Counted from the first letter of the whole stretch, positions 8,173 through 57,600 are shown. The stretch is DNA of 63,632 nucleotides, filler included, from Neolecta irregularis DAH-3 (GCA_001929475.1; 7 parts of 7 records of this genome joined end to end with filler, not necessarily neighbours in it); one strand, 5' to 3'. Notes: generated by a model from the letters alone, not told the origin. Numbers and translations: made by a program.

Positions 8173-11033
8173 ATGGCCCGCCTGAACCTGAACGCTCAGT
8201 CAAGTCCTGTCATCGATACAAAAAATGAATCTTCATCTGCCGAATCGCCTCAGGATAAATCTGTGGATTTATTTCTCGGTGACAGATTAAATAAACTCAA
8301 TTTATCGCCCATCTTCTCAAACAACGGGGGAGTACAAACGGATACAACGCCAAAATCGACTCGTAGAATCTGCACTCATGGTGATAGTACACCCTCGTGG
8401 AAAAAACCTCTGTCAGAAGTGATTAACTTGGAGACTCCAGAAGACTCAGATCTGCCACAGTCAATTGTTCCTCTAACCTATCCTTTTCAACCGCTCATCT
8501 CTGTAAACATCAGTCAACAGCAACTCGCGAAGTCAAGTCAACCGCTATATCCACCACTCACTAATCAATATCCCGCGAATCTACTCATCCCGTCAGTCTC
8601 TGCACAGAAACATGGCCCGAAATCAAAATTCTTCCAGCAAATAGCCACTATGAAAGATAAGAACAAGCGGGATGAAGTTCAATTTGGAAAGACAAGTACC
8701 ATCCTGTCACCTTTATCAAATGTGAAAGGCATGTTTTCAGTATACCATATATATACTGAGCTCCAGTCCAGAAACCGATATCAAGACCCACAAGTTCTTC
8801 CAACATTCCTAAAGGTACCTATCAGACATAGGCTGATACTGACTAAAGCCCCGTTTGGCCAACACAACACTTACAACGATATTCTCCCGACAAATTCTGC
8901 TGCATGGAATACAAAGTTCTTATCAAATTCCCAACCAGTAAAAGTACAAATCCCGAAAAACGATTCTCCAACCTGGACTCAATCACGCGAACAGAAATCT
9001 CCTATCACAAAATTAGACAGCCCACCTGACATGGGACATGGGCTTTTTACTGTTTCAGAGGCCGAAAAACACATAAAAGAATTATTCGCTGGGAATGTGA
9101 TCAATGAGGAAGAGGAGGCTGGAGAGCGAAGTAAATCGGTGGAAGGGTTGAATGTCGAGTTAATGGATCATCAAATTGATGGACTCACGTTTCTCAGAAA
9201 CAGAGAATCCGGTAAGAGCAAAGGTGGAATACTTGCAGATGATGTAACTTTCCTTGCTTTTCAAATCTTACAAACAGATGGGTCTTGGGAAAACCGTGCA
9301 AATACTCGCATTAATTCTCGCCAATCCTTCCCCATCAAAGAAACAGCCAACGCTTGTTGTTGTTCCGTTGTCTCTGCTCGATCAATGGCATCGAGAAATA
9401 TCAACTAAGACGAATCTCACAGTCCTTAAGCATCATGGTACAAAACGAGCAACATCAGGAGAAGGCATTCGAAAGCATGATATTATTGTGACGACTTATG
9501 ACATTATTCGCTCGGAATGGAATGGACTTGAGTATACAGAAAAGAACAAGGACGACGAATTTGGAATAGGCTGTTTTAAGGTTGTTTGGCATCGGATTGT
9601 CCTCGGTTTAATCTTTGTAAATTAAATGCTAACGCTCAGATGAGGCACAAATTATCAAAAACCGATCTTCAAAGGCAGCGAGAGCCGTGTGCGCCTTAGA
9701 TTCTCGAAACAAATGGTGTCTAACTGGAACTCCAATTCAAAATAGTGTAGACGAACTCTATTCTCTTATCAAATTTCTCCGCATTCAGCCATTTAGCGAC
9801 TTCTCACAGTGGAAGGAACGCATTTCTCAACCGATGAAAAGTGGCCATGGTGACAAAGCAATAAAAAGGTTGCACGCTTTTCTAGGAAAGATTTTGTTGC
9901 GGAGAACCAAAGAGTATCTGACATTAACCGGTAACAAACAATTGAAATTACCGCAGCGAAAAATCATTAACGACATCTGTGATTTTTCGGCAGTGGAAAG
10001 GGAATTTTACTCAAGGTTGGAGGCCACAGCTAATAAGACTCTGGATGAACTTGTTCATCAGGCTGAGGAGAGAGGGAAGGGTAATATGCTGAATATGCTG
10101 TGTCTCTTACTTCGGCTGAGGCAAGGCATGGATTACTCTCAGTATGAAATTGACCTATAGCGACTGTTCACTGGGAATTAGTTGCTCAGAAGTTAGATAT
10201 GAAATTGGCAGTGTCGGCTGGGGATTCAGTGGGAAAGAAAGAGCAGGCTGAGGAGATCGATGATGTTGCTGCATTGCTTAGTGGCCTAGGAATCGAGGAA
10301 CAAGCTACTCGGCGATGTGATATCTGTCTTACCGAGTTTGTCCATTTTTTTAGCCTCCTCGCTAATTGTAGATTGTCGGTAACAGATACTCCTAATGGAA
10401 AAAATTTATGTTTCGAGTGTCAAGAGCAAGGTCGCTCCATAACAAACCATAAGAGTATCATCACGTCGACCAAAGTGCGCAGGATGCTTGAGATTTTGAC
10501 AACCCGGGATGAAAGCGATCGAAAGACGATTGTATTTAGCCAATTCACTCAAATGTTCAATTTAATTGAACCGATGTTAGATGGTGCAGGAATCGGATAT
10601 GCGAGATGTTCGTTGCTTTTTATTTGATATTTTCTGATCAGTAGATGAAGGAAGCATGCCGAACTCCAAACGCGAAGAATCCCTTCGAAAACTCCGTGAA
10701 GATAACAAAACTCGGGTGCTTCTGTGTTCTCTAAAATGCGGGTCATTAGGTTTGACTTTGACCTCTGCTTCTAGAGTCATTCTTCTTGATGTCTGGTGGA
10801 ATCCTGCCGTGGAAAACCAAGCTATCGACCGTGTACATCGTATTGGTCAAATGAGAGATGTTGTCGTTCATAAAATCACAATTAAAGATACCGTAGAGGA
10901 GCGAATTGTTGCTATGCAGGAAAAGAAGAAGGCAATAGCTATGCAGGCACTAGGGGACTCCAAGGGCGGAAAGATGATTAGTAATAAATTAAGCTGGAGT
11001 GAGGCCTTGGCACTTTTTGGAAGGGATGGGTAA
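8173..11033 (+). CDS. SNF2-family Rad5/Rad16-like (Uls1/Rrp-type) ATPase with RING-like finger, 6 exons
   Basis: Motifs [38 protein letters not shown], CxxC...CxxC, FSQFT and [19 protein letters not shown]. Confidence 0.93.
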
Positions 11034-18179: not shown

Positions 18180-18652
18180 TTAGGCGATAGGAATTTTTCG
18201 AACTCCCTTGCCTTGAGCTGTTCGAATATCCAAAGTCAAGACTCCATCTGCCAATTTTGCGTCAATCTTTTCGGTGTCTGCCGGGGCTGGCAAAGTGACT
18301 GTTCGGGAGAAGAATCCGGATCGTCGGTCACTATACATTCTTCCCTTGTGTTCTTTTTTGCTCTCATCTTTGAATTCACCGCTGATCGTGAGTGAATTGT
18401 TTAGAGAGTCAAGGTTGATCGAGATGTCTTCTTTCTACTCCGGTTAGAAAGGAATGTTTGCAATCCACATGCCTTTATGCCGGGCAGTTCCATGTTAACT
18501 TTGACACATCCGTCTGCTTCATAAACCTCGAGGAGAGGACAAAGAGGCCTGACTCTGGAAGTTGACTGACTCTCTGCGGGTCGAAGTTGTCGTCGATCAT
18601 CCCAGGCCATAAAGTCTTGGACCAAATCGTGAAATGGTATCAATGAAGTCAT
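18180..18652 (-). CDS. Small heat-shock protein (Hsp20/alpha-crystallin), 2 exons
   Basis: Motifs MELPGIK-KEDI, ERRSGFFSRTVTLP and IDAKLADGVLTL. The intron at 18435-18472 has a GC donor. Confidence 0.9.
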
Positions 18653-19760: not shown

Positions 19761-20914
19761 ATGACCACTCTACAGAAAATGCGAGCTTACACTTACACCA
19801 CACACGGTTCTCCTGCTTCTGTACTCCATTTAGCAACCGACCATCCTGCACCTTCTTCACCTACAGCAACTCAGATTCTAGTTAAAGTTGCATACGCCTC
19901 TCTCAACCCCGTCGATTACAAATTACTCACCTCTTCTCTTGCCCGCCCGATCGTCAAGAAACCATGCATCCCTGCAAGTGACTTCTCAGGGGTCGTGGTT
20001 GAAGCAGGCGCAGAGAGCGGTTTTAAAACCAACGATCATGTCTATGGAAAACAGAGCGCTGCAAAGTTCATTCGTGGATCGAGCGGCTCTCTTGCTGGCA
20101 TCTTTCCATGTAGTATTCTCGTCTCTAACATCTAGAATATCTTCTCGTTGAATCAGTACAGGTTGTTTTGAAGCCCAATACTACATCCTTTGTTGATGCA
20201 GCCAGCTTCTCATTGGCTGGATTGACCGCTCTGCAAACATGGAAAGCTGGAAAACTAGCAGAAGGCGCTAGAGTACTTATTGTAGGTGCATCAGGAGGTG
20301 TCGGCACGTTCGCTGTCCAAATCGCAAAGGCCAAAAAGGCTTATGTTGTCGCTGTTTGCTCTGGGGCCAACGCTGCACTCGTCAAATCACTCGGCGCGGA
20401 TGAGGTAGAATCTCATTATTTCCATTCACTCGTAACTTTATAGGTCATCGATTATGCTAAACACCCACGACTTGTTGAATACCTGGTAAGCCTGAACAAA
20501 CCGTTCGATTTAGTCTTTGATGTTGTTGGAAAAGACGATTCTTTGTATTACCAATCACATCGTTTTTTGGCTCCTGAGAAACCATTTCTTTTTATCGCTA
20601 CAGACATTGGCGTCTCCTCATTAGCTAGCGAAGCTATGAAGAGAGTTCTACCTGGATTTCTTGGCGGTGGGAAGAGACCGTACATCTTGGTCTATCTTCA
20701 AGAAACACCTTTGGATTTTAAAGAATTCGATCAACTCGTTCGAGATAGTATGTTTCTTGTTTTATCTAAAGTTGTATTCTGATCGTCGATAGAAAAGGTA
20801 AAAGCTGTTATTGACTCTGTTTGGGAATTCGAAGATGCAGTTGGCGCTTTTGAGAAATTGATGAAAGGGCATGCTAAAGGAAAAATTATAGTTAAAGTTG
20901 CAGGTGATCTTTAA
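19761..20914 (+). CDS. MDR-family NADPH:quinone oxidoreductase-like protein (Yim1/RTN4IP1 type), 4 exons
   Basis: Motifs VKVAYASLNPVDYK, DFSGVV, GSLAEY, VLIVGASGGVGTFAVQIAK and GHAKGKIIV. Confidence 0.9.
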
Positions 20915-21197: not shown

Positions 21198-22470
21198 TCA
21201 ATCAAGCCTCGAAACAATTGCATCAGTGTACTCTGTTGTCGATGCTGTTCCTCCTAGATCGCCAGTAATATGTTTTCCCTCTTTCAAAGTGTCGAATGCT
21301 GCATTTTCAATTTTATCGGCAAAGGAACCTAGATCCATGTATCGTAACATCATTACAGAAGATAATAACAAGGCAGTTGGGTTAGCGAGACCCTTTCCAG
21401 CGATGTCTGGTGCTGATCCGTGGACTGCTTCAAAGATGGCTGCGTCGACTCCGATATTACCAGATGGTGTGAGACCTAAACCGCCTACCAGTCCAGATGC
21501 CATATCCGACAGGATATCTACGATTCAGCCGAGATGACTGAAGACTCTTGCCTCCGTATAAATTGGGCATGACCATTACTCTGTCGTTATAAGGAGTTGG
21601 GTCAGTGACCATCTCATCGATTAGTAAGGGGAGGGGGGGGAGAGTACCCTTAAACAAGTATTATCCAACAATTCGGCATCGAATTCGATATCCGGATAAT
21701 CCTGCGCAACTTCCTTTGCGACTTTCAAAAACAATCCATCACTCATTTTCATAATAGTAGCCTTGTGAACGGCGGTAACTTTTTTACGTCCGATATCCTG
21801 TGCATATTGAAATGCAAACCTCAAAACACGTTCAGATGCATCCCTTGTTATAAGTTTTATCGATTGAACGACTCCATCAACGACTATATGTTCAATTCCA
21901 CTGTACTCTCCTTCTGTGTTTTCTCGAATTAAAACGGTATCAACATTATCATAAGCAGTTTTGAAACCCTGAATAGATTTACACGGGCGAAGATTAGCGA
22001 AAAGGTTGAATGTTCGTCGAAGTGTCAAGTTCATTGAAACATGTCCTTTTCCAATTTGCGTCGCTGCAAAACGTCAGCTGTAAAAATATAGTTGAATACC
22101 AAGCGGTCCTTTCAAGGCTACCGTATTCTTTTTAACGCTGGTGACGGCTTGTTCAGGTATTGCAGTTTTCCCATTTTGAAAAATGGGAGAAACGTCAACT
22201 GGTTCCCAATCAATCGGTACCTCTTGTCATTTCGACACTATACTAATAACTTACCTGTGCCGCAGCAAATATTTTCTCGACGCTTGTAGAAATTTCGGGA
22301 CCGATGCCATCACCCGCGATCATTGTAACTGTGTACCGACCCTACCCGTCTAAGCCCCGTGGTCCACAAACGAATACATTTGGATTTTTTCCCCTGATGA
22401 ATGATCCGGCTACACGACTTGCCGATCGAACATGCTGGGGAAGGCGTGTCGATTGGCGGAGAGCAAACAT
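21198..22470 (-). CDS. IDH2: Mitochondrial NAD-dependent isocitrate dehydrogenase, catalytic subunit 2, 6 exons
   Basis: Arg-rich presequence; motifs [33 protein letters not shown] and [13 protein letters not shown]. Confidence 0.95.
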
Positions 22471-35591: not shown

Positions 35592-38500
35592 ATGGATTTA
35601 GGGAACTTCATGAGTAACGCTGTCTATTCTCAGAGCTGCCGTTATCAACCTACACCAGTCACTACTTATTCCTATGCCGACTCACAGAATTCAAAACCAA
35701 ACTTAGTATGTTTACTGTAATCATTAGCTGATATAATGATGGCCGATGAATCATCGCTGATTGCTACTGAGAAAGTACTCTCGGCCGAACATTTCTTTCC
35801 CCATCCTAGTCGCGATCAAGTTCGATTTCCTCGATATTTCCAGCTTCTGCGCACGTTATATCTTCTGAATTCTTTGGCCCTCAAATACTTAATCCGGAAT
35901 TACCATGGTGCCAAATCAAACGGTCGCATTGATTGTCCTCGTCGAACTGGGTTTGAACAGTTAGTTCAGCGAGGGTTAGATTTCTATGTTGCTTCGGACT
36001 TTCACCATGACATCGGAGCCAGTATTGAAGAGGAGCACGACGTTGAATTGTTACAACTGGCAAAGGAAGCAGGTTCTGAAGGTGGACTGTTAATTGATAT
36101 CATAGATGGAATTCCCTCAGCTTGATTCGTCGGAAGACGGGTCGGAAGGAATAATATCTCTTCTCTGCTTCATTGATAATATAGATTTCGAGCTTTCGCT
36201 CGATTCAGAAGACTTCAGGGAAATCGATGAGGTTATGAATCCTTTTCAGTTATCTCAAAAACGACGCAAGTCACTCAGAACGCATTGGTTCTTACTTTGA
36301 GATCTGAAAGACGCAACCGAGAGTCCTTTCAAGATATTGTGTACAGCTGAGTCTTCTTTCGAGCAGTCACCGTTCGCTGGCAAAGTTGATAAACTAGCAT
36401 CAGATTTCTATCTTCCAATCATGCCTTCTCGCGAGCCTTCGATCGATCGAGAATTCGAATTCTCGCAGCCACTAGAGACTGAGACGCCGAATTCTACTCC
36501 GGGAGACGAATCCTCGGCTTCCAAATCTGATTCCTCACGTCTCAATCTCTCAGTCTTACCTTTCGAGTATCAGTGGGAACTATATCGAACAGCAATACAT
36601 AATAACATTGACCCTGGAATATTCAACTCTACAAATTTGCTCTCTGCTCTTCTTCCTCTAGTCAAGAACAGCGAAATGGAACTCTCGAGTTACAAGTCTC
36701 TACGCGAATCTATTAAAATATATTTAAAAACACTCTTTCCGAAGGGCAATCACACGTTGCCTATGGCAACCAGTGATTCGGATTGGCAGACTCTTCAAAG
36801 GCATAAATGGACTCATGGAACTATTCACCTGACTGCATCTATTGTTGAACGAAAATGGAATGGTCGTAAACAGTTTGCTATATCCACCAATCCACTCAAA
36901 ATCGGAACCTCTAACCGCTTCTTCCGCCGATTTGGTGGAGATCGGTTTCTTCTAATCACAATTCCCACCATCAGATCGGATCAACATCAGAAATTAATAT
37001 CGCTGCTTAGAACGCCATTCATTGTTTATGAGAGGAAGTATCAGCTATTTTGTGAGCGAGATAAAGGTAAAAGCGTGATGTTTTTTGCAACATCAGGCGT
37101 TTCTCCTAATCTTTCACTCCTTGAATTACTCGACTGGCATGCTCCCTTATTCCTCAATGCAGACCAGACGATGGCTAAATATTATTCGAGAATCGCATTG
37201 GGGTTATCTTCTAGTAAACCCACTGTCGAGTTCAATGCAAGCCAAATAATCGTTGAGGAAGATATCGTAAATTTACCAAATGGAGAGATCATGACAGATG
37301 GATGCGCGCTGGCTTCACCGCATGTATTTCGAGAAGTGCGACGAATTTTGAATCTGAATACAGTTCCTGTCGCTTTACAGGGACGTCTCGGTGGTGCCAA
37401 AGGCGTATGGTTCATGTCTCCCAATTCTGATAGATACGACGACGAATTATGGATACAAGTCCGTCGAAGTCAGTTAAAATTTGATGCCGATTGGATTAAT
37501 CGATCCTCAGAGGTCACCAGACTTACACTTGATGTTCTGAAAACTCCGAAGCCCCCCCAACCCGGAACTTTAAATCATCAGTTTATCTCAATATTATCTC
37601 AGCAAGGTGTTCCCGATGATGTATTCAAGGAAGAACTCGAACGTAATATTACAAGTAATATGAATGAATTTATCGCTGCGGTTCTAGAAGACAATGTTCC
37701 TCGACTTAGAGAACAGCTTGAACATAAGACATTTCTCTTGCGGAGGGCAGCTATGGGGCGTGAAAGCTACTATGATGAAGACGATATCGTGGCTGTCATA
37801 ACTGGCAATGAACCTATCGCAACGCACCCAAATGGTCGTCCTTTATCGAATGCGGAAACTTGTATAATGATGCTTGATGCTGGATTCAGGCCTCGAACTT
37901 GTAAATACATGGCGAGAAGATTTCGATGTATTATTCAGGAATACAGCAAAATAATTCAAGAAAAGATGCATATGGTTGTTCAGCAATCAAGCGTTCTATT
38001 AGCAAGCATGTCTATTGCTTTGAATTTAGTTTAACAATAGTCGCTGATCCTACAGGAACACTAGAAGAAGGGGAAGTCAGCATCCGCTTTTCACGACCAC
38101 TCATGGACGAAAACACCGGGATCTCGACCCTAGTTGTTGAAGGAGCGGTTATACTTGGCCGTAATCCAGCTTTACTTCCGACAGATTTACAGAAGGCAAA
38201 AGCGGTTGATTGTCCAGCGCTAATCACTCTTACCGATGTCATAGTTTTTTCTGTGAAAGGGGAAAAGAGTCTTGTTAGTTTGTTATCTGGCGGTACGTAC
38301 GATTGAGTTTATGATCTGATGAGGAGGTGATTTCGATGGTGATACGATATTTTGTTGCTGGGATCCTAGATTTGTCGTGCCTTTCAAAAATGCCTGTCGA
38401 AATTACGCCCAAATGGATCTTTATCTCAATGCTGATGAATGGTTTCATCGCAAGACTGAGAAAGCGCTCAAGATATTTCTTAGCGGCAATCCAGAAAAGA

Positions 38501-41760: not shown

Positions 41761-42824
41761 ATGTCTGTAAAGCAAGCGAGTTATGGTTTGTTTATGCCGC
41801 CTTAATGACACAATTGACCAATCGTAGGAAAAGATTTTGTTCGAGTTTTGAAAGTCATTAGGGAGGCAGAGGGCAAACAAACCGTTGTTGAAATGACTGT
41901 GCGAACCCTGCTTTCTGTTGATACGGACGAATTCAAAAAGTCGTACACGGAGGGAGATAATTCACTGGTTATTGCTACGGATACGCAGAAGAATACTGTA
42001 AATGGTAGGATTTGAAATCGATTCGACAAGTTGAAAACGCGTAGTATTGGCGAAACAACACGACGTCCAGTGTCCCGAGGTATTTGCGACCATCGTTGCG
42101 AATCACTTTGTAGAAAAATACAGTCACATCCATGTGGCCGAAGTTTCAATTATACAAAATCGATGGTCTAGGATGATTATTGATGGGAAATCTCATCCTC
42201 ACTCCTTTTATCGAGATGGAAACGATGTTCGTAGTGCGCTAGTTACGGTCGATGATAAAAAAGGGATTACTATCAAGTCTGGGATCAAGGGTCTCCTTGT
42301 CCTGAAAAGTACCGGGAGTGCTTTCTATGGATTCCATCGAGATGAACTGACAACGCTTGCTGAGACCAATGATCGAATTTTCTCTACAAAAGTCGATTGT
42401 CAGCTATTATGGAACAAATTCTGGACTTTGGATGAAGTGAAACTCATGAAAAATGAGTTCATGAGAGGTTGGAATGTCGCGAGGGATGTAACAATGAGAA
42501 TATTTGCAACGGATGAGAGTGCGAGTGTTCAGAATACACTTTACAAAATGTGTTGCGATATCCTAAGGCAGGTTATGAAAGTCGAAGAAGTCAATTACAG
42601 TTTACCGAACGTACAATCTCTTTGCATATCTACCCTGTTTAACATGTTTAGAAACATTATGTAAATGTAGATCTCAAGCCATTCGGTCTGAGAAACGAAG
42701 GTAAAGAAGCAGAAGTGTTTCTCCCTTTAGCCCATCCAAGCGGTATACTTGCGTCTTTATTCACTGACTGACTTCAGGCCTTATTACCGCCACAGTTGCT
42801 CGCAAATCCCAAGGGAAAATATAG
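41761..42824 (+). CDS. Uricase (urate oxidase), 5 exons
   Basis: Motifs YGKDFVRVLKV, VIATDTQKNTV, VLKSTGSAF, SASVQNTLY, LPNKHY and PSGLITATV. Confidence 0.95.
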
Positions 42825-44141
42825 ATCGCCCATCAACCATGGATATAGATATTATATTGGACCTAGGAAATAGAAAATACACGCGATTACCACGGTTATC
42901 ACAGTAATCTTCAGTTTTATGAGCTTGTTTGGATCGTCTATAATTCTACATTCGATTAACATTTGTTTTTTTCCTACCAATTGTGAGATACGCCCAGGTT
43001 GTCGTACAGAGTTGAGATATACCTATTAGGTTACATGATTCTATCAATTTGGATCTTCTACTGCGACTTAAGCCTTACATGTTTTTGCAGTCAATCTTTG
43101 TAGATTGCGAGGAGAATGGGATTCGTTTTGCCAAGCTTCCACATCAAATCCTTCAACTACAACCCCTCTTGCAAGGCGAGCCTAGCTAGACCTGAAATGG
43201 CTGTTCTTTATCGGAGATAGACCCATCAGGTCGAGAGACATTCCAAAAAAAGCCACATTAGCAGATGGATTATTAGTGGTTGAACGTCAATGGCACTAAC
43301 TAGATGCACAATGTTCTAGCTATCTCTAATTATTATCTTCATACAGGGGCCACTCTAGCACAACGATGAACCGTCTCCAGTAACACCCATTAAGGTTTCA
43401 CTATAGAATGTAGCAATAATCGATCTATAAATCATTTCCTTCATGGAAATGGAAATGGAGGACGGGGTCCAAGCTGGGGAGAAGGAGGGTCTCACTCCCT
43501 TTCCCGCGAAATTAATGACATGGAAATTATAGAGGCTTATGGGTGCCGTCTGAACGTATGAAAAAATGATGAGTAAGTGCTAGAACGTTCGATAGAGCAA
43601 ATTCAATGCGCAAAAGAAGGAATTCGAGATTGAGTCTTCGCGCATGGAAGAGATACGCTGGTCTATATCCTTGTCAATTAACAACACATTTCTTAAGCGG
43701 ATGTATCATCTGCGCTACAATGCATATCGGCTTCTCTTTTACTTAGAATAACAAGGAGAACGGGCAGTGGAATTGCATTTGTCAGGTTACGGGTCCGGCT
43801 ATTATCCGACCGTGTGCCTATTTTGCCAGCCGGCTGCTCCCTTTCCACCGCCATGTTTCAGTCTAATCTGGGGATCTTCTGCCAACGCGTGGTTCGCCAA
43901 CTCACATATGAATCGCCTGTTTTGCACTGCAACGCTGTTCGGAGCAACACAGTTACACAATATTGTTATTCTTTTGTCCTCGCAATCATACGTTTGACTT
44001 TACCTCTTTCAGGTTTTGATCCGTAACCGTTTCCTCAATCCGTTTTTACTTAACAGCATCGTTTATTTTCTCGCAAACTAGACCCTTTCTTTTCCTATTC
44101 CTTTGTAGCAAGCTGGTTTTGCAACTACCATTAATAAGACC

Positions 44142-45938
44142 ATGTCGATCAAGGTGCGCATCCCCTTATTTACTATGGTCCAACTGAAAACCTGTCAGCA
44201 AGAGCTCGAAACTTGGGTTTCTGCTCTGGCCTTCTTCGATGGACAGGAATACGATAAATCGCTGGCCGAATTTGAAATGATTGGTGATCAGGCTAAATAC
44301 CTCTTTAATATTGGAATTATCCATGCCACTGTTGGCCGACATATTCAAGCTGTATGTCCCTTCTTCACTATTGTAATTCTGATATTCATCTAGGTCCAAG
44401 TATTGTTGTGGAAATTGATACTGGCTCATAGATAGTCTTTCCAGGAAGCAGTGAAACTGGATCGTTATCTCGCAATTGCATATTTCCAGGCTGGGGTATC
44501 CAATTTTTTACTGGAGGAGTTCGAGCTGGCATTGGGCAATTTCAACGATGCCCTTTTGGTATAATAATGATCAGAGTATCATTGACAGAGAGTATCTGCG
44601 TGGCAACGTTCTTATCGATTACGATCAGATCGGCTTGACATTTCGACTCTTCTCTTGTGAAGTTCTGTTTAACAGAGGCCTATGTCAAATCTCCCAGGGT
44701 CAAACCAAGGAAGGTATGGCAGATCTTCGGTTTGCATGGAAAGAAAAGCAGACATTGGAACACGACGTCATCGACGAAGCCATCGCAGCCGAGGCTCTAG
44801 TATGTCTTGAAAGTCACAAGTGGAATTTACATTTGCAGGGCTTCACTGTGTTTTCGATTCCGGTGGGTGTTCTCTTTCGTCCGAACCAGAACAAGGTCAG
44901 AAATGCCAAAACAAAGGATTACCTCGGAAAGGCAAGACTTGTGGCTGCAACCGATCGGAAAGATATATTTACTGGTTTCACAGGCTCAGAATTACAAAAG
45001 GCAAGAGTGTAAACCGGATTTTGTCTCTGATTCATTAGGTTTCCTTCCGTGAAGAACAAAATATATCTATGGAGCAGAGACCAAAGCTCGCCAAGACAAG
45101 CGTTGCGCAATCTGTCTCTTCCAGTAGTTTTAATTCATTCGAAAGCACATCTTTTAATCAGCTTAATCACATTCTGCGGTCGAACACCATTAATTTGCCA
45201 CCAACTCCCCCAAATGAAGGCGAGACTTCCCATCGCGAGCTGCTTATGAGGAACTATAGCACCTCTGATAGGTCGGACATTCGTGATCAAGATAAATCTC
45301 GAAGAAGAGGCCGAGATCGCAGTAGACCAGCCTACCCTAGCGATAATCGCACTATTAATCGAAGCTTGTCACGGAGGGGCTTCTTATCATCTCGCGGTAG
45401 TAGTCAGGAAAGATCGCAAGTATCTGCATATTCTGCATACACGAGCAGCAGTCGAAGAATTCAACAGAGCAGAAATAATTCGGAAGAAGATGAACCATTT
45501 GACGCACAGTCGTTGTACGATGCTTATTGCTACTACGACAATGATCATCAGAAACGAACACATAGACAGAAAGCACCTCGACGTACAGATGACCAATCCG
45601 ATTATGAAGAAGATTATAATGAGCCCGACTTTGAAATGATCAGGAAAATCGAGTGCCAGAAAGTGAAAGTCAGAATTCATTTCGCAAACGAAATTCGAGC
45701 TCTCGTTGTTCCCATAGACATCGAGTTTGACAAGTTCAGACGCCGTATCATAGATAAACTCGAGATTAAGTGTCGTATCAAAGTCAAAGCTAGAGATGAA
45801 GACGGTGAACTGATAGTTCTCGGAGACAACGAGGATCTGGAAATGATCATGTTCGCAGCAAAAGAGGAGGCTAGACGAAAACGTGTTGAACTCGGAAGGA
45901 TAGAGGTTTGGTGTCTTGAAGAGTCAACATATCTATAA
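44142..45938 (+). CDS. noxR: NADPH oxidase regulator NoxR (p67phox homologue), multi-exon
   Basis: N-terminal TPRs (KQELETWVSAL, YLAIAYFQAG, LFSCEVLFNRG), FSIPVGVLFRP..K...KTKDYLGKARLVA, and a C-terminal PB1 domain (KVKVRIH...DEDGE). Confidence 0.92.
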
Positions 45939-46186
45939 GAATTCTGATGATCTTTGGTGGCCGAGTTGTTTTTTACGATCCTGATTTTGGTTTGGTTATT
46001 GTCGGAGCTTCTGGTCTTTTGGGGTTCTTTATATACAGGTAACAGATAGAAAATCGAACTATTCATCGAATACCATTAATGAACCATAGCTTTAAGATCT
46101 GAGCCTGTCATAGAGGTGGTTCAACTTTACATTATTGCCGACAAGAGAGGGTAATAAAATGAGACGTTTTGAAAGTAAGTAATCTC

Positions 46187-46267
46187 GGAGACATGGCCGA
46201 GTGGTTATGGCGTTAGATTTAGGCTCTAATGGGTTCGCCCGCGTGGGTTCAAGTCCCACTGTCTTCA
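46187..46267 (+). tRNA. tRNA-Leu (anticodon TAG)
   Basis: Acceptor stem GGAGACA/TGTCTTC; D-arm TGGCCGAGTGG; anticodon arm TTAGA-TTTAGGC-TCTAA; long variable arm; T-loop GGTTCAAGTCC; followed by a T-run terminator. Confidence 0.93.
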
Positions 46268-46453
46268 ATATTTTTCTCATTCTTGATACATGTTCACCCC
46301 TACTTTTGGTATATTTCTTTTCTAATATATTATTACCCTTCTTCTGAGCACTGAGGGAAAGGATGATAATAATCGTTGATTAACCTAGGCTGCTTGTTGA
46401 AGCGGAACATTTATCAACCACCTCGACACCAGGACGCTGAGGAAACCTATAAT

Positions 46454-47021
46454 ATGGTATTTCGAATTTTGATGCACTGCTAATATCTCAGGCTCATAGG
46501 ATAATAGCACAGAGTATTTAACAAAGCCAATCTATCCCTTTTTAACTAAATAGTTGTGGTGATCGGTACGCAAGTTGTCGGAAAAGCTTTTATCGAAGCA
46601 TATCGGCAGGCAGCAGCTACAAGTGCTGGAGCTGCTAGATCTCAGGCGGCGTCTTTCGGGGGAGCAGCCGCGAAAGATTCTATCACACAGAAGACTGGAA
46701 TCACATCGGAAGAAGCTTGTCAGATACTTGACGTACCAAAAGACAAAATATCTCTCGATGGCGTTATGAAGGTACGCCTATCTTTTGAAGCCGGGAATAT
46801 TGAAAACATTCCAGCGGTATGAAAAGCTATTTACGATGAATGAACCAAAGAATGGAGGATCGCAGTATCTGCAGGCAAAGATTTTTCGGGCAAGAGAACG
46901 TCTAGGTCCAGCACCTCAGTATTTGCCATTAAACTAACCGAAAGAAATGGAGCTTGCTCAGAAGAAAGCTGCTTCAGAAGTTCAGGAGGCGTCAAAGCAT
47001 TCGGACAGCTCATCATCATAA
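46454..47021 (+). CDS. PAM16: Mitochondrial import motor subunit Pam16/Tim16, 5 exons
   Basis: Motifs MAHRIIAQIVVIGTQVVGKAFIEAYRQA, EEACQILDV and NGGSQYLQAKIFRARERL. Confidence 0.93.
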
Positions 47022-48355
47022 AGACTTTATGGCCCCTTCATCGACGCAAAGATTTCCTTTGGTATTGTACTTAGAGTAAGCGAGCATTGTAGATTTTGGG
47101 AACTATTTTGTCTGTCTTTAGAATGTGTAGATGTCTTTATATGCCAACCTAATAACTATTTCTCCTTCATATCACTCTAGCCTTGTTTGACATGTTCCCT
47201 AGGGAAAAGGTTTGTGAGCCCTGGCTTCTTTCTAACTCTCCCAACTCAAAGAAATATGGACATGATTAATCAATCATACTCAGCCCAGTCTGTGGGGATT
47301 TGAAAGTTCTTTTGCAAGAGGAATGCTCAGAGAGACATTGAATTTCCTGTTTGCAAGTTTGTTTCAAAAGATCTTTTTCCGAATTTCCGCAAATCTTTCT
47401 TGTCCAATTATAGGAAAGATTAAAATGCAAAACCTCCTTTACCGTATAAATGATCTCCATTAATTCGTTTGTCCACTCGCTCCACAATCAATTAGCAGCT
47501 CGCTCGGTTTTCGAAGAAGCTGCTCACGCATTCCTTCTTCTAATCTAATTTTCGATAATGTTCTCTACAGAAGATGGAACTTTTTGATTGTTTTGGCTGT
47601 TGTCATTCGTCATTGCGAGCAGGAGCCTTTCCCTTTATAGACAATCCCACGTGCATGTGTCACCAAACCTCATAACAAGATGTGAAAAACATGACCTAAT
47701 ATCGATTATATGATCTAGACCTAGAGCGCTTACTAAAAGTATGCTTGACTATCATACAATTTGACAAATTTGGACGCTTTAAATATCATGGATTGCTTGA
47801 TCGCCATGTTGCTGCGGGTGATGAATTCTCTGTGGTAATACAGAATTTCAAGAATTTTAGCCAGTTCATAGCCCTATTTCTTGAACAAGAAACCCTTTTG
47901 AGTTAGACCTCACTGGAGGCTATTTTGTCAAGTTGAAATATTTCAATGAAATGTAGGCGATGTATAGTGCAGACATAATGAATAATCTTCAGCCATGTTG
48001 ACCCATGATTAGAGATAATCATGAACCTGGCAATATATTCTTTTACAGAAACGATCGACGTTGGATGCTAGGCAAGGTTAGTTCGGGCAAGTCTGATGAT
48101 CTTTCTACTTGTCAAACGTCGGGATTCTACTTTGATTCTTGTATTCAGATAAAAATTAACATTCAGGAACTTTGGTAGATGCACAGACTGGAAGCGCACA
48201 TGTTCTTTAGACCTATCTTTAAGGAAATATCAGCTGGGTATAGCATGGATACCGAGTCTAGTCCAGAAAACAATAATTCTGTTACAAGAATTCTTCTATT
48301 AGGGCTTATTTACACTATATGCTCCATCCCGATATGATACAAATTTACCAGGCGA

Positions 48356-49118
48356 TTATGTACTGCATGAAGTGGGTACCAAACCGTTAATCCAGCTCTC
48401 CCATGCAATCCACTCTTCTCGTTGAACATTGACGTCAAAGCAGATGACTTTCAGAAAGCGACTTTCCCAACGCCTTACTCTGCCTCCTGACACTCCAATC
48501 TTTCCAGCCCACCAATCTATACTCAGGTATTCAAAGTCTGAAGATGGCGAGAAGCATTTGAACGCAATGAACACAGCCGAAGAGATCAAGTAAACCATGT
48601 TTATTGGTACCCAGCAGAACACATGTCGAGCGATAAGCAGGATTGCTGCTCGGAGAACTTGCTCTTTACTCTCAAACACTTTGCATGTAGTAATCGTCTC
48701 ACAGATCGCTAATTCGATAGGTATTTTAGTGAGTACACTGATTGCTAATGCGAAATTATGAGCCGTAATTGGCGTGCTGGATTTTGCTACGAAGGGATCC
48801 ATCTCGTCTGGAAGATCAAAGTCCTCTGGAATTGTTTTTCCTTGGTTCAATTCTGAAAGTTCTAACAAATCCGTGAATTTGAAAATCTGGCCGAGAGCTT
48901 CTCTGAGATCGGTTTCCAACGTCTCATCAAGAACTGCGGGAATAGATGAGATATTTGCTGGATACTCCTTTGAGGGAGGCGACGAACAGAGTGAGGAAAT
49001 TGGACTGGTAAAACTGAAGATTGAGGAAATATCTGACACGCTCTCGTCGTCATCGTCATTGTCGGAATATATGCGGTCCGGATAAGGAGAACGGGGATAA
49101 GGGAGAACTCGGGTCATT
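48356..49118 (-). CDS. Cyclin-box protein, Pho85-cyclin (Pcl/Clg1)-like, divergent
   Basis: C-terminal cyclin-like pattern SAVFIAFK...WWA.K.G......WE.RFLK.I.FD.NV..EEW..W. Confidence 0.65.
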
Positions 49119-50989
49119 TCAAAGATTGAGATGGGCGAGTTCAAGGGGGAGGTGTCCTGGTATTTATCATTAAATCAAAGCACAAATAACGGGGTAAAGC
49201 CGCGATACTAGGATGAGAGAGACGTCATTCTTCTTAAAAAGTGCCGAGACCATACTATGTTATAGCCATTAGCGTATCCAATAAACATCTCACGATTGCG
49301 AAGAGGTTCAGCACGCTGCGGTCGTTTTGGGCGTAACTTGTTCCTCAAGGCCGGCCTACTAGAAATTCCGCCAAGCGAATGGTTTTTGTAATATCTGTGG
49401 CATATCGTCCGCCGGGCTGAAGTTGGTTGCCTGCAAAGGACAACTTTTTACTGGTAGTAGGAAGAAAGTTGGACATTGCGATTTAGGGCGCGTTCGCCAG
49501 CCACCAGATTTACCCAATTATTGCAATTTTAGGTGATTTTGACAAATTCCGATTTGTCGTCGCGTTCGGCACCACACAACTTGCAACTTTATTTTGCAAT
49601 ATTCGTCGAAAAACGCGAGAAAGAAACACAGATACGACTGCAGCCAACATTTCCATCCAAATACAACACTATGTAATTTTGGCAAATTTGAATTGATGTG
49701 TTCGACGTGTCCACAAATTTGAACTTTTTAGCTGGAGATTTGTCAGAATATCTCGAGAAAGAAAATGTTGCTCTGGACCAGTAGGTACTAGTATTTTCTT
49801 TCTTGTCACCAATACAATCACAACACGCTTCAACCAAAATGTCCACTTTATTTCAAGTACACCTATAAATGAACATAGCACTGCTTCTATAAACTAATCT
49901 GCCACTGTCATCAAACTCCATGCTGCTCCTGTGCACTGGCCATGCACCTGGAGATTGCAGACAAGTGCAGTGCAGCAGCAGTCATCCACCAGCACACCCT
50001 GGTGTCACTCGACAAGTACAATATTCCCTGTTTTAGAAAATGGAGATCTTTTTTTTGGGTGGCTGGCAAACGGACCCTAAATAAACTATCCAATGCCAAT
50101 GCAAAATATATAGCCATTCCAACATATATATATATCTATCTATTCATAATCTAGACAGACAGAAACACAAACAATCCAATATTTCAATTTATACATTTTT
50201 ATTATTGTCAAGTGAATTCCCCTGAGCAGCCCTTCCCTTTTCTTTTTCCTTTTTGAAGAATAGGCGTGAAGAGAGTTTCTTGGTGTCGCGTATTATTATT
50301 TGATTTTTCAGTGTCAGGTTGTAGGGTGATGATTTGATTCTTCCATCGTGGTAGACCCCCATTGTTGATGATTTGATTCTTCAGTTATGGTGGATGTCCG
50401 TTGTTGATGATCTAAGTCGGCATCGTCATCGACTGATTTGTAAATTTCTGTTGAATCATTTTATAATGTAATAATTCCTTTTCACTGACACTAGGTTCAA
50501 CGCCTCAGCGAAATCCCCTTGTCCAACACAAAACATCTTCTTTCGTAGTCACCTTTTCAAAAAAGAAGGTCGTACTAGGTATGTTATCTTGCTTCTAGGG
50601 ACGCCATTCTTGACATGTTCTAAAATTGGGATTTGAAGAATTGGCAAATTCCATAAAATTTGATGCGCACAGAACACGGGCTTAAAATTGCAATTTGAAG
50701 AAATTGCAAATTTCATGAAACTTGGGGCGCGAACGAACTCTAATTCAATTCGTGTTCCACCCCGATGTGCTTTCCCCTACTGCCCGACGCCTTCTTCTCC
50801 TTCCACGTTGTCTCTGATCTGCACAAAACATCCTCTCCACTATCATCCCCACAGCGCTCTCCACCGCCTCCCTTTTGTGTCATTGGCTAAATGCTGGCAG
50901 TCCCCAGCTGCTCATAGCCCTGGGCTACTCTGTCGCTGTCCTGCAACTTGCGCCCTCTGTACGCGCCTGGGCCTACCATACCAGCTTTT

Positions 50990-51195
50990 TCGCAGCCATC
51001 TTTGCACACTCGATCATCATGTACAACCTCCAACCACTGCAGTAGCTCCGCAGACATAGCGACGATTGCACCGGCAGAGCTGCCACAGAGCACGCGTGGC
51101 AGCAGCTGGTTGTCGAGCAGCACCATTATGACACCGACATGGCTCATCCCGAGCATGGCGCCACCCAGCAGCGCTGTGGCCAAACACCTGGTGCT
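50990..51195 (-). pseudogene. Patatin-domain triacylglycerol lipase (Tgl3/4/5-like) fragment
   Basis: TALLGGAMLGMSHVGV..LLPRVLCGSSAGAIVA contains the Gly loop and GxSxG motif. Homology is lost through frameshifts on both sides. Confidence 0.7.
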
Positions 51196-52210
51196 CGGTC
51201 ATGAGTCACTCCAACTTGCACTTGTCAGGAAGTGAGTTACCCGACCGCAGGAGCAGCATGCCCAGCAATTTGTCGACTTCGCAGAAGTACTCAGAACCCC
51301 AATCCGGAGACATATCAATCGTTTGCGGCTAGAGGATTGGACAGAATGATGAATGGGATTACAGCAACATCTATCCAATGAAGGCTGGTTTGAAGAGAAC
51401 AGACACAAAAGACAACATTTCCTGGCCCATGGCTTGATAATCCTCAAGATGGCTCAACAGGAATAGTTCCGTATCTCAATGCTCCTGAACTGGCGCGGTC
51501 GAGTGCGTATTCTCTGGCAAGGACCATTCGACCAAAGATCATTATCGTTTGCAAACACATATTCTGCGTCAGCTTCTTTGGGTACTCTCTTCTTCTCACC
51601 CCCTGACACAAGCGCCCTCAGCGGCCATATCATCTCCACTGCCCTCTTCCCCTTCGCTGCTAAACTTGCACTGCAAGGCTCCTTTGCCGAACACATACAC
51701 ACCCTTGCCTGCCTCTCCCACTCACGTCCTCTTGCTTCCCTGCCCGTCACCGCCCCTGATCACCTTGCCTGCTGCGACACCTGGCAAAAGCACTTCCATC
51801 CTCACCCGCATGCCCGCCTCTCCGCCAGATTGTTGCTACTGCTCGACATGCCTGCAGAACTACTCCCCCGTCGAGGATCCCGCTCCAGCTCCACTCTGCA
51901 TCCTCCGCCTGTCTCATGTAGATCGATTCCCTGACTGGCCACTTTCCAGAGCTCAGTACTGCTGTAACTGCTATGGCTACACCTACTATGCGAATATGCT
52001 TCGAGAAAGTATCAAACACGGATTGGGAAGTGACAACACTGAGCGCGAAGATCAAAGACAATGGGAAGATGGGAGTCGACGACAAAAAGTACTCGACATT
52101 TCAAAGATTANNNNNNNNNNNNNNNNNNNNNNNNNNNNNNNNNNNNNNNNNNNNTTAATTAATTAANNNNNNNNNNNNNNNNNNNNNNNNNNNNNNNNNN
52201 NNNNNNNNNN

Positions 52211-52498
52211 GGCTGACTCTTCAAACCAAATGCTTCTGAATGCGGGCATTGCAGTTGGAATATTCTATTTGACTTGGTATGTCATGGTCCGAAAATGATC
52301 ACTACGAAAAGAGCAAATGGCTGACTCTTCAAACCAAATGCTTCTGAATGCGGGCATTGCAGTTGAAATATTCTATTTGAGGCTGAATCTTAATATGATA
52401 TGTCCTAGTCCGGAAAATGTTACGAAAAGAGCAAATGGCTGACTCTTCAAAACGAATGCTTCTGAATGCGGACATTGCAGTTGGAATAATCTATTTGA
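52211..52498. repeat. Tandem repeat, ~108-118 bp unit, about 2.6 copies at a contig start
   Basis: GGCTGACTCTTCAAA..AATGCTTCTGAATGCGG.CATTGCAGTTG occurs at 52211, 52319 and 52437. Confidence 0.9.
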
Positions 52499-52861
52499 GG
52501 CTGTCCTCAACGGGGTGGCCATTCTGCAGGCATGCCGAGTAGGAGCAATAGTCTGGTGGAGAGGCTGGAGAAGATGGGCAGGGCGAGCAAGGAGGGTTAG
52601 CAAACGATGAGAACAAAAAGAAGCAAGTTCTTGCAACCACTAGTTGACGCGAAAAAAAACGATCCAGGAAAATTTGGAATCATAGTTTTTATATACATCG
52701 TTGAATATATAATATCCAGTTGATGGCTCCTTAAATTCAGAGAACACTGAATAATCAACGCCTTGCTATAGTGAAGTAATAGATTAGAATAGGATGGGCC
52801 TACATAATATAACTGAAATATAAAGCTACAAGGCTTGCAAAAGCTTCAAGTGGTTCAGCTG

Positions 52862-54429
52862 TTAAAGATATGTGGGTTCTGAATCTACTCCTTTTTCAGC
52901 TGCTGATGGAAACTCCTGTGATAGGGAAGCTGTGGCCTCTTCTCTTTGACATTTATACTGAGCATCATCTGGCTTTATCTCTCCTGTTTGTCTAGTTTCC
53001 GAAGAGGATGCAGCGACCCTGTCTTTTGGAGGTGTTTCTTTTGTCTCTGTTGCGGAAGCATAACCAGTTTCCAAAATATATGATTCTTCTTCCTTTGCAA
53101 CAGATTTCTCGGCTTCATTGTTGCTATGGGTTTGATCCCCAGCTTCAATTTTGGACCAATGAGGTGGAGGTGCTTTACCATTCGCGCCATTCGCTTCAGG
53201 CTTTTCGGGCGATCCACTGTCGGCCAATTTTCTCCATTGGTCAAGAATATTTTGAGCTCCCTCTTTGATTTTCAGCTCTTCGTCTCGTGGTATTTCAACC
53301 AGATTTACGATTCTCTTGAGGACCTTTCCAATTTTTGTGGCCTTTGTTAAGTCGGGAAGAAATATCAGGAGATACCTTGAGGATTGGACTGGTTAAACCG
53401 TCAAATTTGGACAATTTCTCCAATTGACTTTTGACATTAAGCATATCCTGTGGCATCAATCGACAAGTCCCAGGAAAAAAAAATATACTTCGGGTTTGAT
53501 TTCTGCGCCAGCTGATAATAGGGCCTTTTGCAACTTATGTCGAACGAATAAAACGTCCTTTTCGATTTTATCAGGGCTTGGGAGTACCTTCTCAACCGGT
53601 TCCACTTCTTCATCGCTATTTGTAATTTTCCTTCTATCTTTTTGCGCAGACTTTTGTGTGACTTTGGATTTTCCATTGGTAGCTTTTTTGGCAGGTGTTT
53701 TCGACGGTGTCCTTTTGGCAGGTGTCTTCCGAGGCTATAGTGTCAAAAAGAGGTGAAGGGAAACATGTAAACCTTCTTTTTGGGTTCTTCATCTTCGTCG
53801 CCGTCAACTGACTCTGATTTCTTGCGCTTTTTCGAAACGGGAGTTTTCTTCTTTGGCTTCGCAACGGGTTCTTCTTCATCTTCAGGAGGAACGGCTTCGC
53901 CATCATCATTGCTTTCATGCATATCAATGTCTTCCTCCTCTTCGATCTCTTCATGGTCAGATTCTGCATTCCCGGCTGCAGCGGAAAATCCATTTTTCAC
54001 GAAATCGGTGATTTGCTGCAGCGTGGGAGGTTTAGTTGCCATTTTGTACGCATCTTTGAGGTCTTTGCTGCCCTTTCCAAGTTTAAGAAAGTTGTCAATC
54101 TCCTCTGGTCTGAGTGGTTTTACTTCAGACTTTGAAGCCCATAAACTAGAGAATCAGACGCCCGATGGCAATGCGGCAATGCTGTAGGCCATACTAATTA
54201 GCATCGGGAAAGAAATATACAGCGTAGATTTCGGATTTATTTGCTGGTTTTAATTTGATGGCCTCTTCTGTAACCTGTTCATCCGTGACGAGCTGGACAG
54301 ACGTTAGTTTAAAATGCCCAAGACTACAAAACATGCGATTCCAGGCCACCATGGATAGCCTTTAATTTTACCGAGGACAAGAGTCCCTGGTGTTAATGCG
54401 CGCAAAGGTGCAGAAGGCGAATCAAACAT
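52862..54429 (-). CDS. PWWP-domain chromatin protein (Pdp3-like), multi-exon
   Basis: Spliced reading gives PGTLVLGKIKGYPWWPGI, YAVYFFPDANY, an acidic/basic linker, VLFVRHKLQKALL and TKIGKVLKRI (TFIIS-N/IBD-like). Confidence 0.85.
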
Positions 54430-54659
54430 TTGAGGTGATTGAGCGGTTGGATGTGAAGGTGTGGTTTTGGACAGGCAAAAGGAATTTCCCGAACAATGTG
54501 GTTCGGTTTCTTGTGTGGATTTTCAAATATTCATTTGAGCCGCTGATAAATTATGTTCTTGGGTGCTCAGGATGTGTATCCATGTAGAATGATGTTTTCG
54601 AGACCACCTTTGGCACAGCTTGGACATCCACTCTGAATATTTATATGGTGATAGCAGCA

Positions 54660-57600
54660 ATGTCGCATGTCAAGGCTGCGTTGAAATCAGCAAGGGAAGC
54701 AATATCAAAGCAAGACTGGGACGCTGCTATCCGTCAATGCGACCGGGTTTTATCTTTTGAACCCGAAAATTACAATGCGTACCTTGTGGATAAGTACCCG
54801 AAATAACCCTCTTCAGCTTCGTGTTTCTGGGCCTGGCTCGTTTCAACAATGACCATTTTGCGGCAAGCGAGGAGGCCTACAGAACAGCAATCAAATTTGA
54901 TGCTGAACAGCCTTTAGCCTGGCAGGCAAATTATCTTTTGAACCCGGAGCCGACCTTTTAGGGTTTAGTAAACCTCCTTGAACGAGCGGGTAGACTGCAA
55001 GAACATATGGGTGTTTCGAAAAAGCTCGCCGAGATATTTATGAACAAGTATTCTTCTATAATCGCCAATACCTCTAATGAAAGGGACGACAAAGACAAAT
55101 GCTTTGCAGTCATCGATAAAACATGCAACATTTCAAATAAATATGGCAATGAAGACCTACAGCTTGGAGCTCTTGTTACTAAATCGCCAGAAAGCCCGTT
55201 CTTTGTATATCTTGAAGATCGGCTCCCACACCCTTCGATAACGTACGCAGCAATCATCGACATCAGTGAAAAGAATGAGAAAGACACTATGAACAAAGAG
55301 ATTGCAAAAAGGAGATCAAGACTCGGCGCTCGGATGGAAGATGTCGTGAAAGATGTCACGCGCGAAATCTTGCTCAAGTCCAAAGTAGAGGTACCTTTTG
55401 GAAAGGTTGGCTGAGATTCAGCTAGACAATTTATACCAAAATCTAGTAAATTGGAGCTATGATGAAACTGTTCGTCGAGAGGTTGAAGAAAAAATCCTGG
55501 AACGAGGCTATCGACTACTTAATTCGCTCCCATCGGCGATGAAAGGCGAGCAATGCCTCAAAGTCCAAGAATGGGCAAAAGGATTGGTAATCCTCAAAGC
55601 CCCTGTCGAACTAGCATGGCTTATATATCTCGACTGGAAAGATATTGAGCGAATCGGTTTGTTGAATGGTAGAGGATTCTTTTCTAATATACGAGGTGAT
55701 CTTGACAAAAATATACTACATGACTTCTCCGATTTATTCCCCAAACACCCGCTCACGAGAATACTCGCGACTCTATATCGAAGCAACCTAAATCCGTTTC
55801 CTCGAGCTACAACAGACTCTGAAGACAGTACACCCAAAGATGCTCCCCTGCTAGTTGAAGATATTGTCGATGATGTCATGAACGAATTACAATCATGTTC
55901 ACAATACATCCTTGCATATCGGATCTTAAGTGACATGCTTTCACATATACGCGATTATCAAAGCATCTCAGAAACATGCAAAGACGCACTCGATTTACTA
56001 AACAAACGGACTGTCGACACAGGCCATCAATCTCTACTGTATTTACCTGCCTCTTCAAGTCCCTGCTAATAGCTGGCTAGCACATATTCTCATTTCGAGA
56101 CTTTGCTGGGGACAGCTTATGTTTATTTTAATGCTCCCAAGTTACATGCCCAAGCAGAAGCTTGTTTTGATCGTGTGCTTGCTCGACACCCACGCAACCA
56201 GACCGCATTGGTTGGGAAGGGTCTCGTATTAGAAGAGCGAGCGCAATTTCACCAGGCACTGGAGTATTTTGAGAAAGTTTTGGATCAGAATAGGGATTAT
56301 GTACACGCGCTTGCCGAGTTCAGTTGGTGTCAGATCATGCTTGGGGCCCATGAGCAGGGGAAATCTGGACTTGAACGATGTCTTGAATTATTACACGGAG
56401 AAGATTTGCAATGTAAAGAGCTTCGAGCCGAAGTTTGGTGGAGAATGGGATATTCTGTTTGGGAAAATCAACGTACGCATAACCCCATGATAAGTGGCAA
56501 AGATTTACGTCGTAGCTGAACTCAGAAGCGATCGTGCATTGGCTTATGACATGTTCATAACATCTCTCAAGCAAAACCCGAATTTTGCCCCAGTGTATAC
56601 CTCTCTGGGTATTTTCTTTGCGGAGATAAAAGATGACCACGATCGGGCATCTAAATGTTTTCAGAAGGCTTTTGAGCTAGATGCCGGAGAAATCGAAGCA
56701 GCAGAGCGACTAGCACGATCATTCTCCGATTCGAATGAGTGGGAATTGGTAGAGATCGTAGCTCGAAGAGTATCTTCGGCTCCGAAGAAGAGATTATACG
56801 GTGCCAAAATGGGAGCCTGGCCAGAGAGGGCACTTGGTATTGTTGAATTGGTATCTCTATACATGTCATATCCTGAGCTGATGTAGAATCAACATAATTA
56901 CCACATAGCAATTCGGTTCTTCCAAAGTGCATTACGAATCAATCCATCCGATTTTCATTCATGGATTGGACTTGGAGAGGCCTATTTCTATTCAGGACGT
57001 CATATCGCTGCTCAGAAATCCCTTTTGCAGGCTGAAAGTCTTGAAGGAACATTTTGGTTCGCTACCTACCTTCGAGGTCTTGTTTCCGCTGAACTAGGTG
57101 AATTCGAAATTGCCATCGATTGTTTCCTTGGCGTACTTTCCTTAGATTCCGAAAATGTCCCTGCCCGAATCGCTCTCGCAAATACTTATATTGAGGGTGC
57201 CCATCGGTGGATTTCGAAAGCGCATTATGCATTAGCTGCCGAAAATGCTCACAATGCATTGACCTCTCTTTCTAGCATTGTCCTTCAAGACCCGCAAGAT
57301 AATACAGAACCGTGGAAAATTCTCGGAGAAGCCCTTGGCATTCTTGGACAAACTATAAAATTCATCAAGCAGGACATCATGGAAATTGTAGAACATCTCG
57401 CATTTCGTATTTCAGGATTGCTCAGCCAGACTTGTGCTTTTGAAGAAGATTTCGATCCTTTCCGAATTGATGCCATTGAGTCATTCTTACTGAAAGAAAA
57501 GGACTCTCTTGCAATGACATGTCTCGGTTTATCAGTATACGTATACAAGGTTGCTGTTCATATCAGCTATAAAGACCGTTTGAACCATTCAATTGCGTGG

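Follow-up and report, generated by a model that had tools for sequence, protein, structure and literature searches.

Do nuclear genes of the fungus Neolecta irregularis carry spliceosomal introns with GC rather than GT at their 5' end, and do they carry them more often than is usual? The question is raised by a 63.6-kb stretch of its genome (the window; positions are counted from its first nucleotide), in which a first-pass annotation had placed six tiny GC-AG introns. Based on the analysis of this sequence, we consider it likely that these elements are genuine U2-type GC-AG spliceosomal introns and that they are unusually frequent, accounting for about 9% and possibly about 16% of the introns in the sample. 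The window joins seven contigs, namely 1-25090, 25191-41062, 41163-52110, 52211-59325 and three short ones. The spacers between them, at 25091-25190, 41063-41162, 52111-52210, 59326-59425, 60817-60916 and 62226-62325, each consist of 44 N, ttaattaattaa and another 44 N. As the window is made of joined contigs, gene models must not cross the spacers.

According to the main text of the genome paper, DNA and RNA were sequenced from Neolecta, giving a genome of 14.5 Mb with 44% G+C, an N50 of 16 kb and 199-fold coverage (PMC5309816), in which 5,546 genes were annotated, 99.4% of them with RNA-seq support (PMC5309816). The words 'intron', 'splice' and 'GC-AG' each occur zero times in that main text, while the supplementary methods and tables may hold splice-site or annotation details. 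GC-AG use in Neolecta was not reported in the literature that we found, in which the genome paper is represented by its main text.

Six candidate GC-AG introns at protein junctions

All six sequences were present exactly where the first-pass annotation had placed them, each starting with GCA and ending with AG (Table 1), and the measured lengths of 35, 38, 38, 34, 35 and 36 nt agree with the reported range of 34-38 nt. The junctions were tested by comparing contiguous exon translations with solved structures and Pfam and, for three genes, with profiles built from fetched homologues (110 for the SNF2 helicase, 4 for the RNA-dependent RNA polymerase (RdRP) and 88 for the ADH-like protein). With these profiles, each deletion that kept the reading frame, left no stop and lay within 30 nt of the two borders was scored, irrespective of its end dinucleotides. 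Removal of the sequences at the claimed borders restored the reading frame and the conserved protein; the borders were exact by homology in five of the six cases, and for Ski3 they were set by a stop codon and the TPR register.

The SNF2 junction ranked third among 710 deletion variants with 846.8 bits, and the two variants ranked higher, by 1.2 bits, lack an AG acceptor. The two exons of the small heat-shock protein align without a gap to residues 34-58 (ELPGVK) and 59-132 (KEDV...) of the S. pombe Hsp16 chain 3w1z_A. Splicing of the ADH-like gene at the GC donor gave 303.4 bits on the 88-homologue profile with an ungapped GSLAEYLLVE, which was the best of 735 deletion variants. In IDH2, the upstream exon (20 residues, ending in PNLYG) matches residues 229-247 of the yeast IDH2 chain 3blv_B and the downstream exon residues 249-354, while the split codon GAT (D) supplies residue 248. 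The upstream RdRP exon reaches position 349 of PF05183 at residue 566 of 567, and residue 1 of the downstream exon corresponds to position 352; one unaligned residue and the split codon lie between them, so that the coordinates are continuous. This junction ranked first among 914 deletion variants. An ESM Atlas search with the RdRP exon confirmed the family only and returned no informative taxon, and a metagenome scan for RdRP relatives yielded 84 pattern matches, none of which was confirmed.

Table 1. Coordinates of GC-AG introns and candidates, and of the GT-AG introns associated with them
Feature	Position	Strand	Length (nt)	Details
SNF2/Rhp16b-like helicase intron	10126..10160	+	35	aag|GCATGG...TTGACCTATAG; gene model 8173-11033
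Small heat-shock protein intron	18435..18472	-	38	aag|GCATGT...CTAACCGGAGTAG; gene 18180-18652
Zinc-type ADH / quinone-oxidoreductase-like intron	20098..20135	+	38	ctg|GCATCT...CTAACATCTAG; gene 19761-20914
IDH2 / IDH3-alpha orthologue intron	21518..21551	-	34	gag|GCAAGA...CTGAATCGTAG, splits NLYG|DILSD; gene 21198-22323
RdRP intron	38006..38040	+	35	caa|GCATGT...TTTAACAATAG
Ski3 5' intron	54926..54961	+	36	cag|GCAAAT...CCGACCTTTTAG; start codon placed at 54660
Ski3 upstream GT intron	54779-54816	+		exons placed at 54660-54778 and 54817-54925
Public GT-AG intron (P0128) replacing 20098-20135	20113..20135	+	23	
Ambiguous GC-AG, TPR+PB1 (NoxR-like) gene	45001..45038	+	38	score GC 13.0 vs GT 8.6
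Ambiguous GC-AG, PWWP-domain gene	54293..54336	-	44	score GC 11.8 vs GT 9.8
Candidate GC-AG, N-terminal SNF2 part (unconserved)	8729..8766	+	38	score 15.0; paired GT intron 8815-8848 scores 13.7
Candidate GC-AG 5' of conserved RdRP region	36069..36105	+	37	score 14.9
Candidate GC-AG (GCAAGT) removing lone stop 36298-36300	36266..36301	+	36	score 11.3

At Ski3, the intron is in frame, but reading through it ends at a TAG, and a GT donor is absent from the last 80 nt of the exon before 54926. Residues 4-28 of the Ski3 exon align to TPR_2 positions 7-31, whereby the TPR register is kept; the W of ...PLAWQ takes repeat position 4, 34 residues past the previous one, in a register read by eye. Human SKI3 was matched weakly by the upstream exon (residues 48-82, E = 0.45), and a comparison of the downstream exon with solved structures returned no Ski3 match.

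Public gene models provide a view of the same junctions. Four annotated Neolecta proteins were recovered and mapped back to the window (P0001, SNF2; P0121, RdRP; P0127, Ski3; P0128, ADH-like). They imply 18 introns: 15 GT-AG introns of 31-45 nt, one GT-AG intron of 23 nt and two GC-AG introns. The latter lie exactly at 10126-10160 and 38006-38040, i.e. at two of the six claimed sites, where P0001 is read across the junction as GC-AG spliced and P0121 reads LLAIADPTG. The annotators presumably accepted these two introns on the strength of transcript evidence. Elsewhere, the public annotation bypassed GC donors, by the 23-nt intron in the ADH-like gene and by a late start in Ski3, where P0127 begins at 55007, the first Met after the GC intron, and thus loses the two upstream TPR-coding exons.

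The public models deviate at further positions. The SNF2 and RdRP proteins also lack N-terminal parts. The Ski3 model reads through a 39-nt in-frame GT-AG candidate at 55657-55695. In the RdRP model, the intron at 38293-38326 is given the acceptor 38323 instead of 38326, which yields GGGDFDGD rather than GGDFDGD, and the model terminates by reading into the intron 39149-39184.

GT alternatives at the same junctions

The first-pass annotation had held that no usable GT alternative exists at these sites. Taken literally this did not stand, as in-frame, stop-free GT-AG options are present within 150 nt: 39 for SNF2, 41 for the small heat-shock protein, 52 for the ADH-like gene, 20 for IDH2 and 25 for RdRP. 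All of them, however, scored worse than the GC reading on homology or on the intron model. On the profiles, the best GT alternative reached 804.7 vs 846.8 bits for SNF2, 297.1 vs 303.6 for the ADH-like gene and 612.6 vs 622.0 for RdRP, corresponding to losses of 42, 6.5 and 9.4 bits. The intron model belongs to a gene finder that combines a periodic Markov coding score with intron length, donor positions +3 to +6, branch and acceptor, and it was trained on GT introns only. On this model, the GT alternatives at the five junctions scored at most 9.1, whereas the GC readings scored 10.9-16.1; for the small heat-shock protein, the GC reading reached 15.0 and none of the 41 alternatives exceeded 8.4.

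These numbers bear on the possibility that the junctions are mis-called, i.e. that GT donors such as that of 20113-20135 or other sites are really used and the GC readings arose from fitting to homologues. Each tested junction offers 20-52 alternatives from which a true GT-AG intron might be drawn, and at 20098 the annotation uses one. Splicing at 20113-20135, however, adds GIFPC and changes E to K in the conserved GxxAEY stretch, scoring 290.0 bits vs 303.4 for the GC reading. At 23 nt, this intron also stands alone among the 18 annotated ones in falling below 31 nt; the other 17 span 31-45 nt. With the IDH2 and small heat-shock protein borders exact to the residue, the lower profile and intron-model scores of the GT options, and GC-AG chosen by the annotators themselves at two sites, we regard mis-called junctions as very unlikely.

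Donor, branch and length anatomy

The modelled introns of the window are 34-49 nt long with a median of 38 nt. Their GT donors are weak: of 59 such donors, 48 have A at +3, 30 have T at +4, 23 have G at +5 and 29 have T at +6, and positions +3 to +6 together carry 1.59 bits. The GT introns have a yTrAy branch sequence, situated in most cases at a distance of 7-8 nt from the 3' end. This branch is perfect in four of the six claimed GC introns (TTGAC, CTAAC, CTAAC and TTAAC) and one base off in the other two (CTGAA and CCGAC).

The donors of the six, GCATGG, GCATGT, GCATCT, GCAAGA, GCATGT and GCAAAT, mostly follow AG and tend towards AG|GCAWGT, with A at +3 in all six and G at +5 in four. They match an average of 4.83 of seven U1-complementary positions vs 3.03 for the GT donors (one-sided Mann-Whitney p = 3e-4). 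The earlier description of these donors as non-consensus was therefore not borne out.

U12-type introns have the donor RTATCCTT and the branch TCCTTAAC. Neither motif occurs in any of the six introns, and assignment to this minor class, which is also partly non-GT-AG, was rejected.

The first-pass annotation had further proposed that 5' splice-site recognition is relaxed, driven either by intron length or by an altered U1 or U6 small nuclear RNA (snRNA). The former is plausible, as the donors are weak and both intron length and branch position are so tightly fixed that recognition may lean on them. For the latter we see no reason, since the better U1 match of the GC donors is the known compensation of ordinary U2-type GC-AG introns. 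More generally, GC might equal GT as a donor because the machinery has changed, at the 5' end of U1, the ACAGAGA box of U6 or in Prp8/U1C. The very degenerate GT donors would be in line with this, and a study of algae rich in GC-AG introns considered protein components or modifications of RNA as possible causes (PMC3033335). The same study found the U1 5' ends of GC-donor-rich algae to be ordinary (PMC3033335), and in Neolecta the GC donors match better elsewhere than the GT donors do, as ordinary U1 and U6 would predict. We thus deem a changed machinery distinctly unlikely. Rfam identified no snRNA genes in the window; its sole match was a tRNA.

GC donors are more frequent in the window than expected

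When both GT and GC donors were permitted, the gene finder produced 18 genes with 58 GT and 10 GC introns, and its models matched 16 of the 18 annotated introns exactly. Two Ski3 5' introns identified manually bring the count to 59 GT and 11 GC introns, 70 in total over four contigs. At least two further GT introns, one of them 248 nt long, were spotted visually in an MPN-domain gene, and several stretches are unmodelled. The number agrees with the earlier estimate of 70-80. Earlier gene-finder passes, which used codon usage alone or allowed all 16 donor dinucleotides, were dropped for excess introns and fused genes.

The six supported GC introns amount to 8.6% of the 70 (exact 95% interval 3.2-17.7%), and all 11 candidates to 15.7% (8.1-26.4%). 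Against an expectation of 1.3%, the probabilities are 3e-4 for 6/70 and 2e-9 for 11/70; against 2%, they are 0.003 and 1.5e-7. The supported introns are spread over three contigs and the full set of candidates over four. The excess of GC donors claimed at the outset was thus confirmed for the window, with 6 of 70 introns compared to the 1-2% usual in fungi.

As a control independent of reading frame, we collected all sequences of 30-49 nt that end in AG and reach 14 bits or more on the intron model with the first two bases unscored, removed overlaps with modelled GT introns and merged neighbours into single loci. GC starts gave 10 loci, while the other 14 dinucleotides apart from GT gave 0-4 each (mean 2.3; Poisson p 1.4e-4). 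The 10 loci comprise four homology-supported introns, two unverified candidates, one shadow of a GT site and three that are unexplained. Gene finding with decoy dinucleotides was dropped as a control: it returned 0-11 decoy introns vs 10 for GC and did not discriminate, since decoy donors can shift along the same junctions that lack a GT.

Several points weigh against our interpretation. The introns are known here from DNA, homology and annotation. Their excision from RNA is inferred, the indirect evidence for it being that the public annotation uses two of the six. Support beyond their own gene model exists for 6 of the 11 GC candidates only. The Ski3 junction is not spanned by any orthologue alignment, its branch is weak (CCGAC) and its intron-model score is only 8.3. 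At the 20098 site, the public annotation draws a GT-AG intron. The U1-match comparison is partly circular for the full set of 11, as the model that chose them was GT-trained, although it is not for the six claimed introns. Finally, the sample covers about 0.4% of the 14.5-Mb genome, and the window was chosen for looking unusual.

The last point leads to the possibility of a chance cluster: the six introns would be real, the genome-wide share would be the ordinary 1-2%, and the window would have been picked for holding several of them. In such a selected sample, a probability of 0.003 for 6/70 at 2% is not negligible over many scanned windows, and of the 11 candidates two are ambiguous and three unverified. 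Yet the window consists of seven separate contigs, with supported GC introns on three, the probability falls to 2e-9 when all candidates are counted, and the excess reappears in the frame-independent control. We therefore hold a chance cluster to be unlikely. An assembly or base-call error, or a T/C polymorphism, with T as the true base at +2, is an explanation we consider extremely improbable. The +2 base is known from the assembly and not from reads, but at 199-fold coverage it would take 6-11 independent errors, all T-to-C and all exactly at donor +2.

Comparison with known systems and a possible mechanism

GC-AG introns made up 1.3% over 61 species in a survey (PMC3033335) and 1.7% of the RNA-seq junctions in Trichoderma (PMC4324775); GT-AG introns account for 98.7% in fungi (PMC7072748). 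The GC-AG share in the window is about 5-10 times as high as is usual in fungi. U2-type GC-AG introns of the ordinary kind, which occur in fungi, animals and plants, resemble those of Neolecta in their GC..AG ends, the stronger remaining donor, the normal branch and the restored frame. The differences lie in the share, which is far higher in the window (8.6%, up to 15.7%), and in the length of only 34-44 nt.

As a sizeable intron class, GC donors have a parallel in algae, for which that survey gives 39.6% in Aureococcus anophagefferens, 22.2% in Micromonas pusilla and 7.7% in Chlorella (PMC3033335). These algae have genomes of 65-70% G+C, and composition was offered as a cause there (PMC3033335). 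Neolecta, in contrast, is a fungus with only 44% G+C, and the window has 40-45% beyond its first 4 kb, so that composition does not explain the GC excess. Oikopleura dioica and Eurytemora affinis frequently use GA-AG donors (PMC7072748). They share with Neolecta a permissive donor dinucleotide with conserved flanks, but differ in the dinucleotide and in the kingdom; the window holds one unverified GA-start element (36149-36184).

How might such donors be recognized? The introns are close to a minimal size, at 34-45 nt; their yTrAy branch precedes the 3' AG by 7-8 nt, and their 5' site offers barely more than GTA. The spliceosome may find such minimal introns as whole units, relying on their branch, their fixed length and a donor reduced to a minimum. 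It would then tolerate a T-to-C change at donor +2, mostly where the remaining donor (AG|GCAWGT) pairs well with U1 and U6, and selection on +2 would be slight provided that the neighbouring bases pair. That the spliceosome tolerates C at +2 throughout the genome, with at least 8% of introns being GC-AG and rarer donors such as the GA of 36149-36184 perhaps occurring as well, is a serious possibility that we put forward tentatively.

If this is true, scaling up the 70 introns of the 18 modelled genes to 5,546 genes would give about 1,800-3,500 GC-AG introns. Among fungi, Neolecta would be the first case of such donor permissiveness, which has otherwise been reported for Oikopleura and a small number of algae. 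This permissiveness would be tied to the minimal workable intron length, and many errors in public gene models would be due to it. Should the share hold genome-wide, Neolecta would be a natural test case for 5' splice-site recognition at near-minimal intron length.

GC donors affect two of the four public models checked: the ADH-like protein has gained a spurious insert of five residues, and Ski3 is without its first two TPR-coding exons. According to a Fusarium study, Augustus and similar gene finders ignore GC-AG introns (PMC5677156). Studies of intron evolution that use the Neolecta annotation (PMC7940399, PMC8476143) would inherit such errors.

Ambiguous and further candidates

Two more GC donors, at 45001 and 54336, had been flagged as ambiguous, and they are: both have GT options, at 45007-45038 (32 nt) and 54293-54327 (35 nt), respectively. 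The 45001-45038 region is not conserved and hence lies outside homology testing. At 54336, the GT option adds three residues, leaving four extra residues relative to PF00855, compared to one in the GC model; the Pfam PWWP coordinates thus mildly favour the GC donor there.

The remaining candidates lie in unconserved sequence. That at 8729-8766 is not needed for the frame, as 8137-9405 is open when unspliced, and the public model starts downstream. Residues 1-230 of the RdRP model align to no homologue, and the candidates 36069-36105 and 36266-36301 fall within this part. The same 5' part of RdRP contains the 36-nt GA-start element at 36149-36184 on the plus strand (aag|GAATAA...TGATAATATAG; score 15.0), which could be a GA-AG intron or chance. 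Further GC-start intron-like sequences, all on the plus strand and scoring 14.3-15.0 bits, occur outside modelled genes at 28689-28722, 46911-46944 and 48683-48720; one of these three is antisense to an FAD-oxidase-like gene (28400-30073).

Other features of the window

Pfam analysis of 20 open reading frames in the gaps between gene models gave one clear match (MitMem_reg) and one weak TPR match. The MPN/MitMem_reg gene (33535 to about 35100) contains a 248-nt GT-AG intron at 33793-34040 on the plus strand, with a perfect GTGAGT donor, a CTAAC branch and the spliced product KRIDQ-Y-RQVYPTLE. Both its length, far above the norm of 34-45 nt, and its much stronger donor set it apart. A gene-finder pass that allowed introns of up to 440 nt left the models unchanged and missed this intron.

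The first 3,600 nt of the window have 52.7% G+C, compared to about 42% elsewhere, and long open frames on both strands; the sole matches there were weak ones to TPR_10/TPR_12 at 1876-2568 on the minus strand. A tRNA-Leu gene with the anticodon TAG is located at 46187-46267 on the plus strand.

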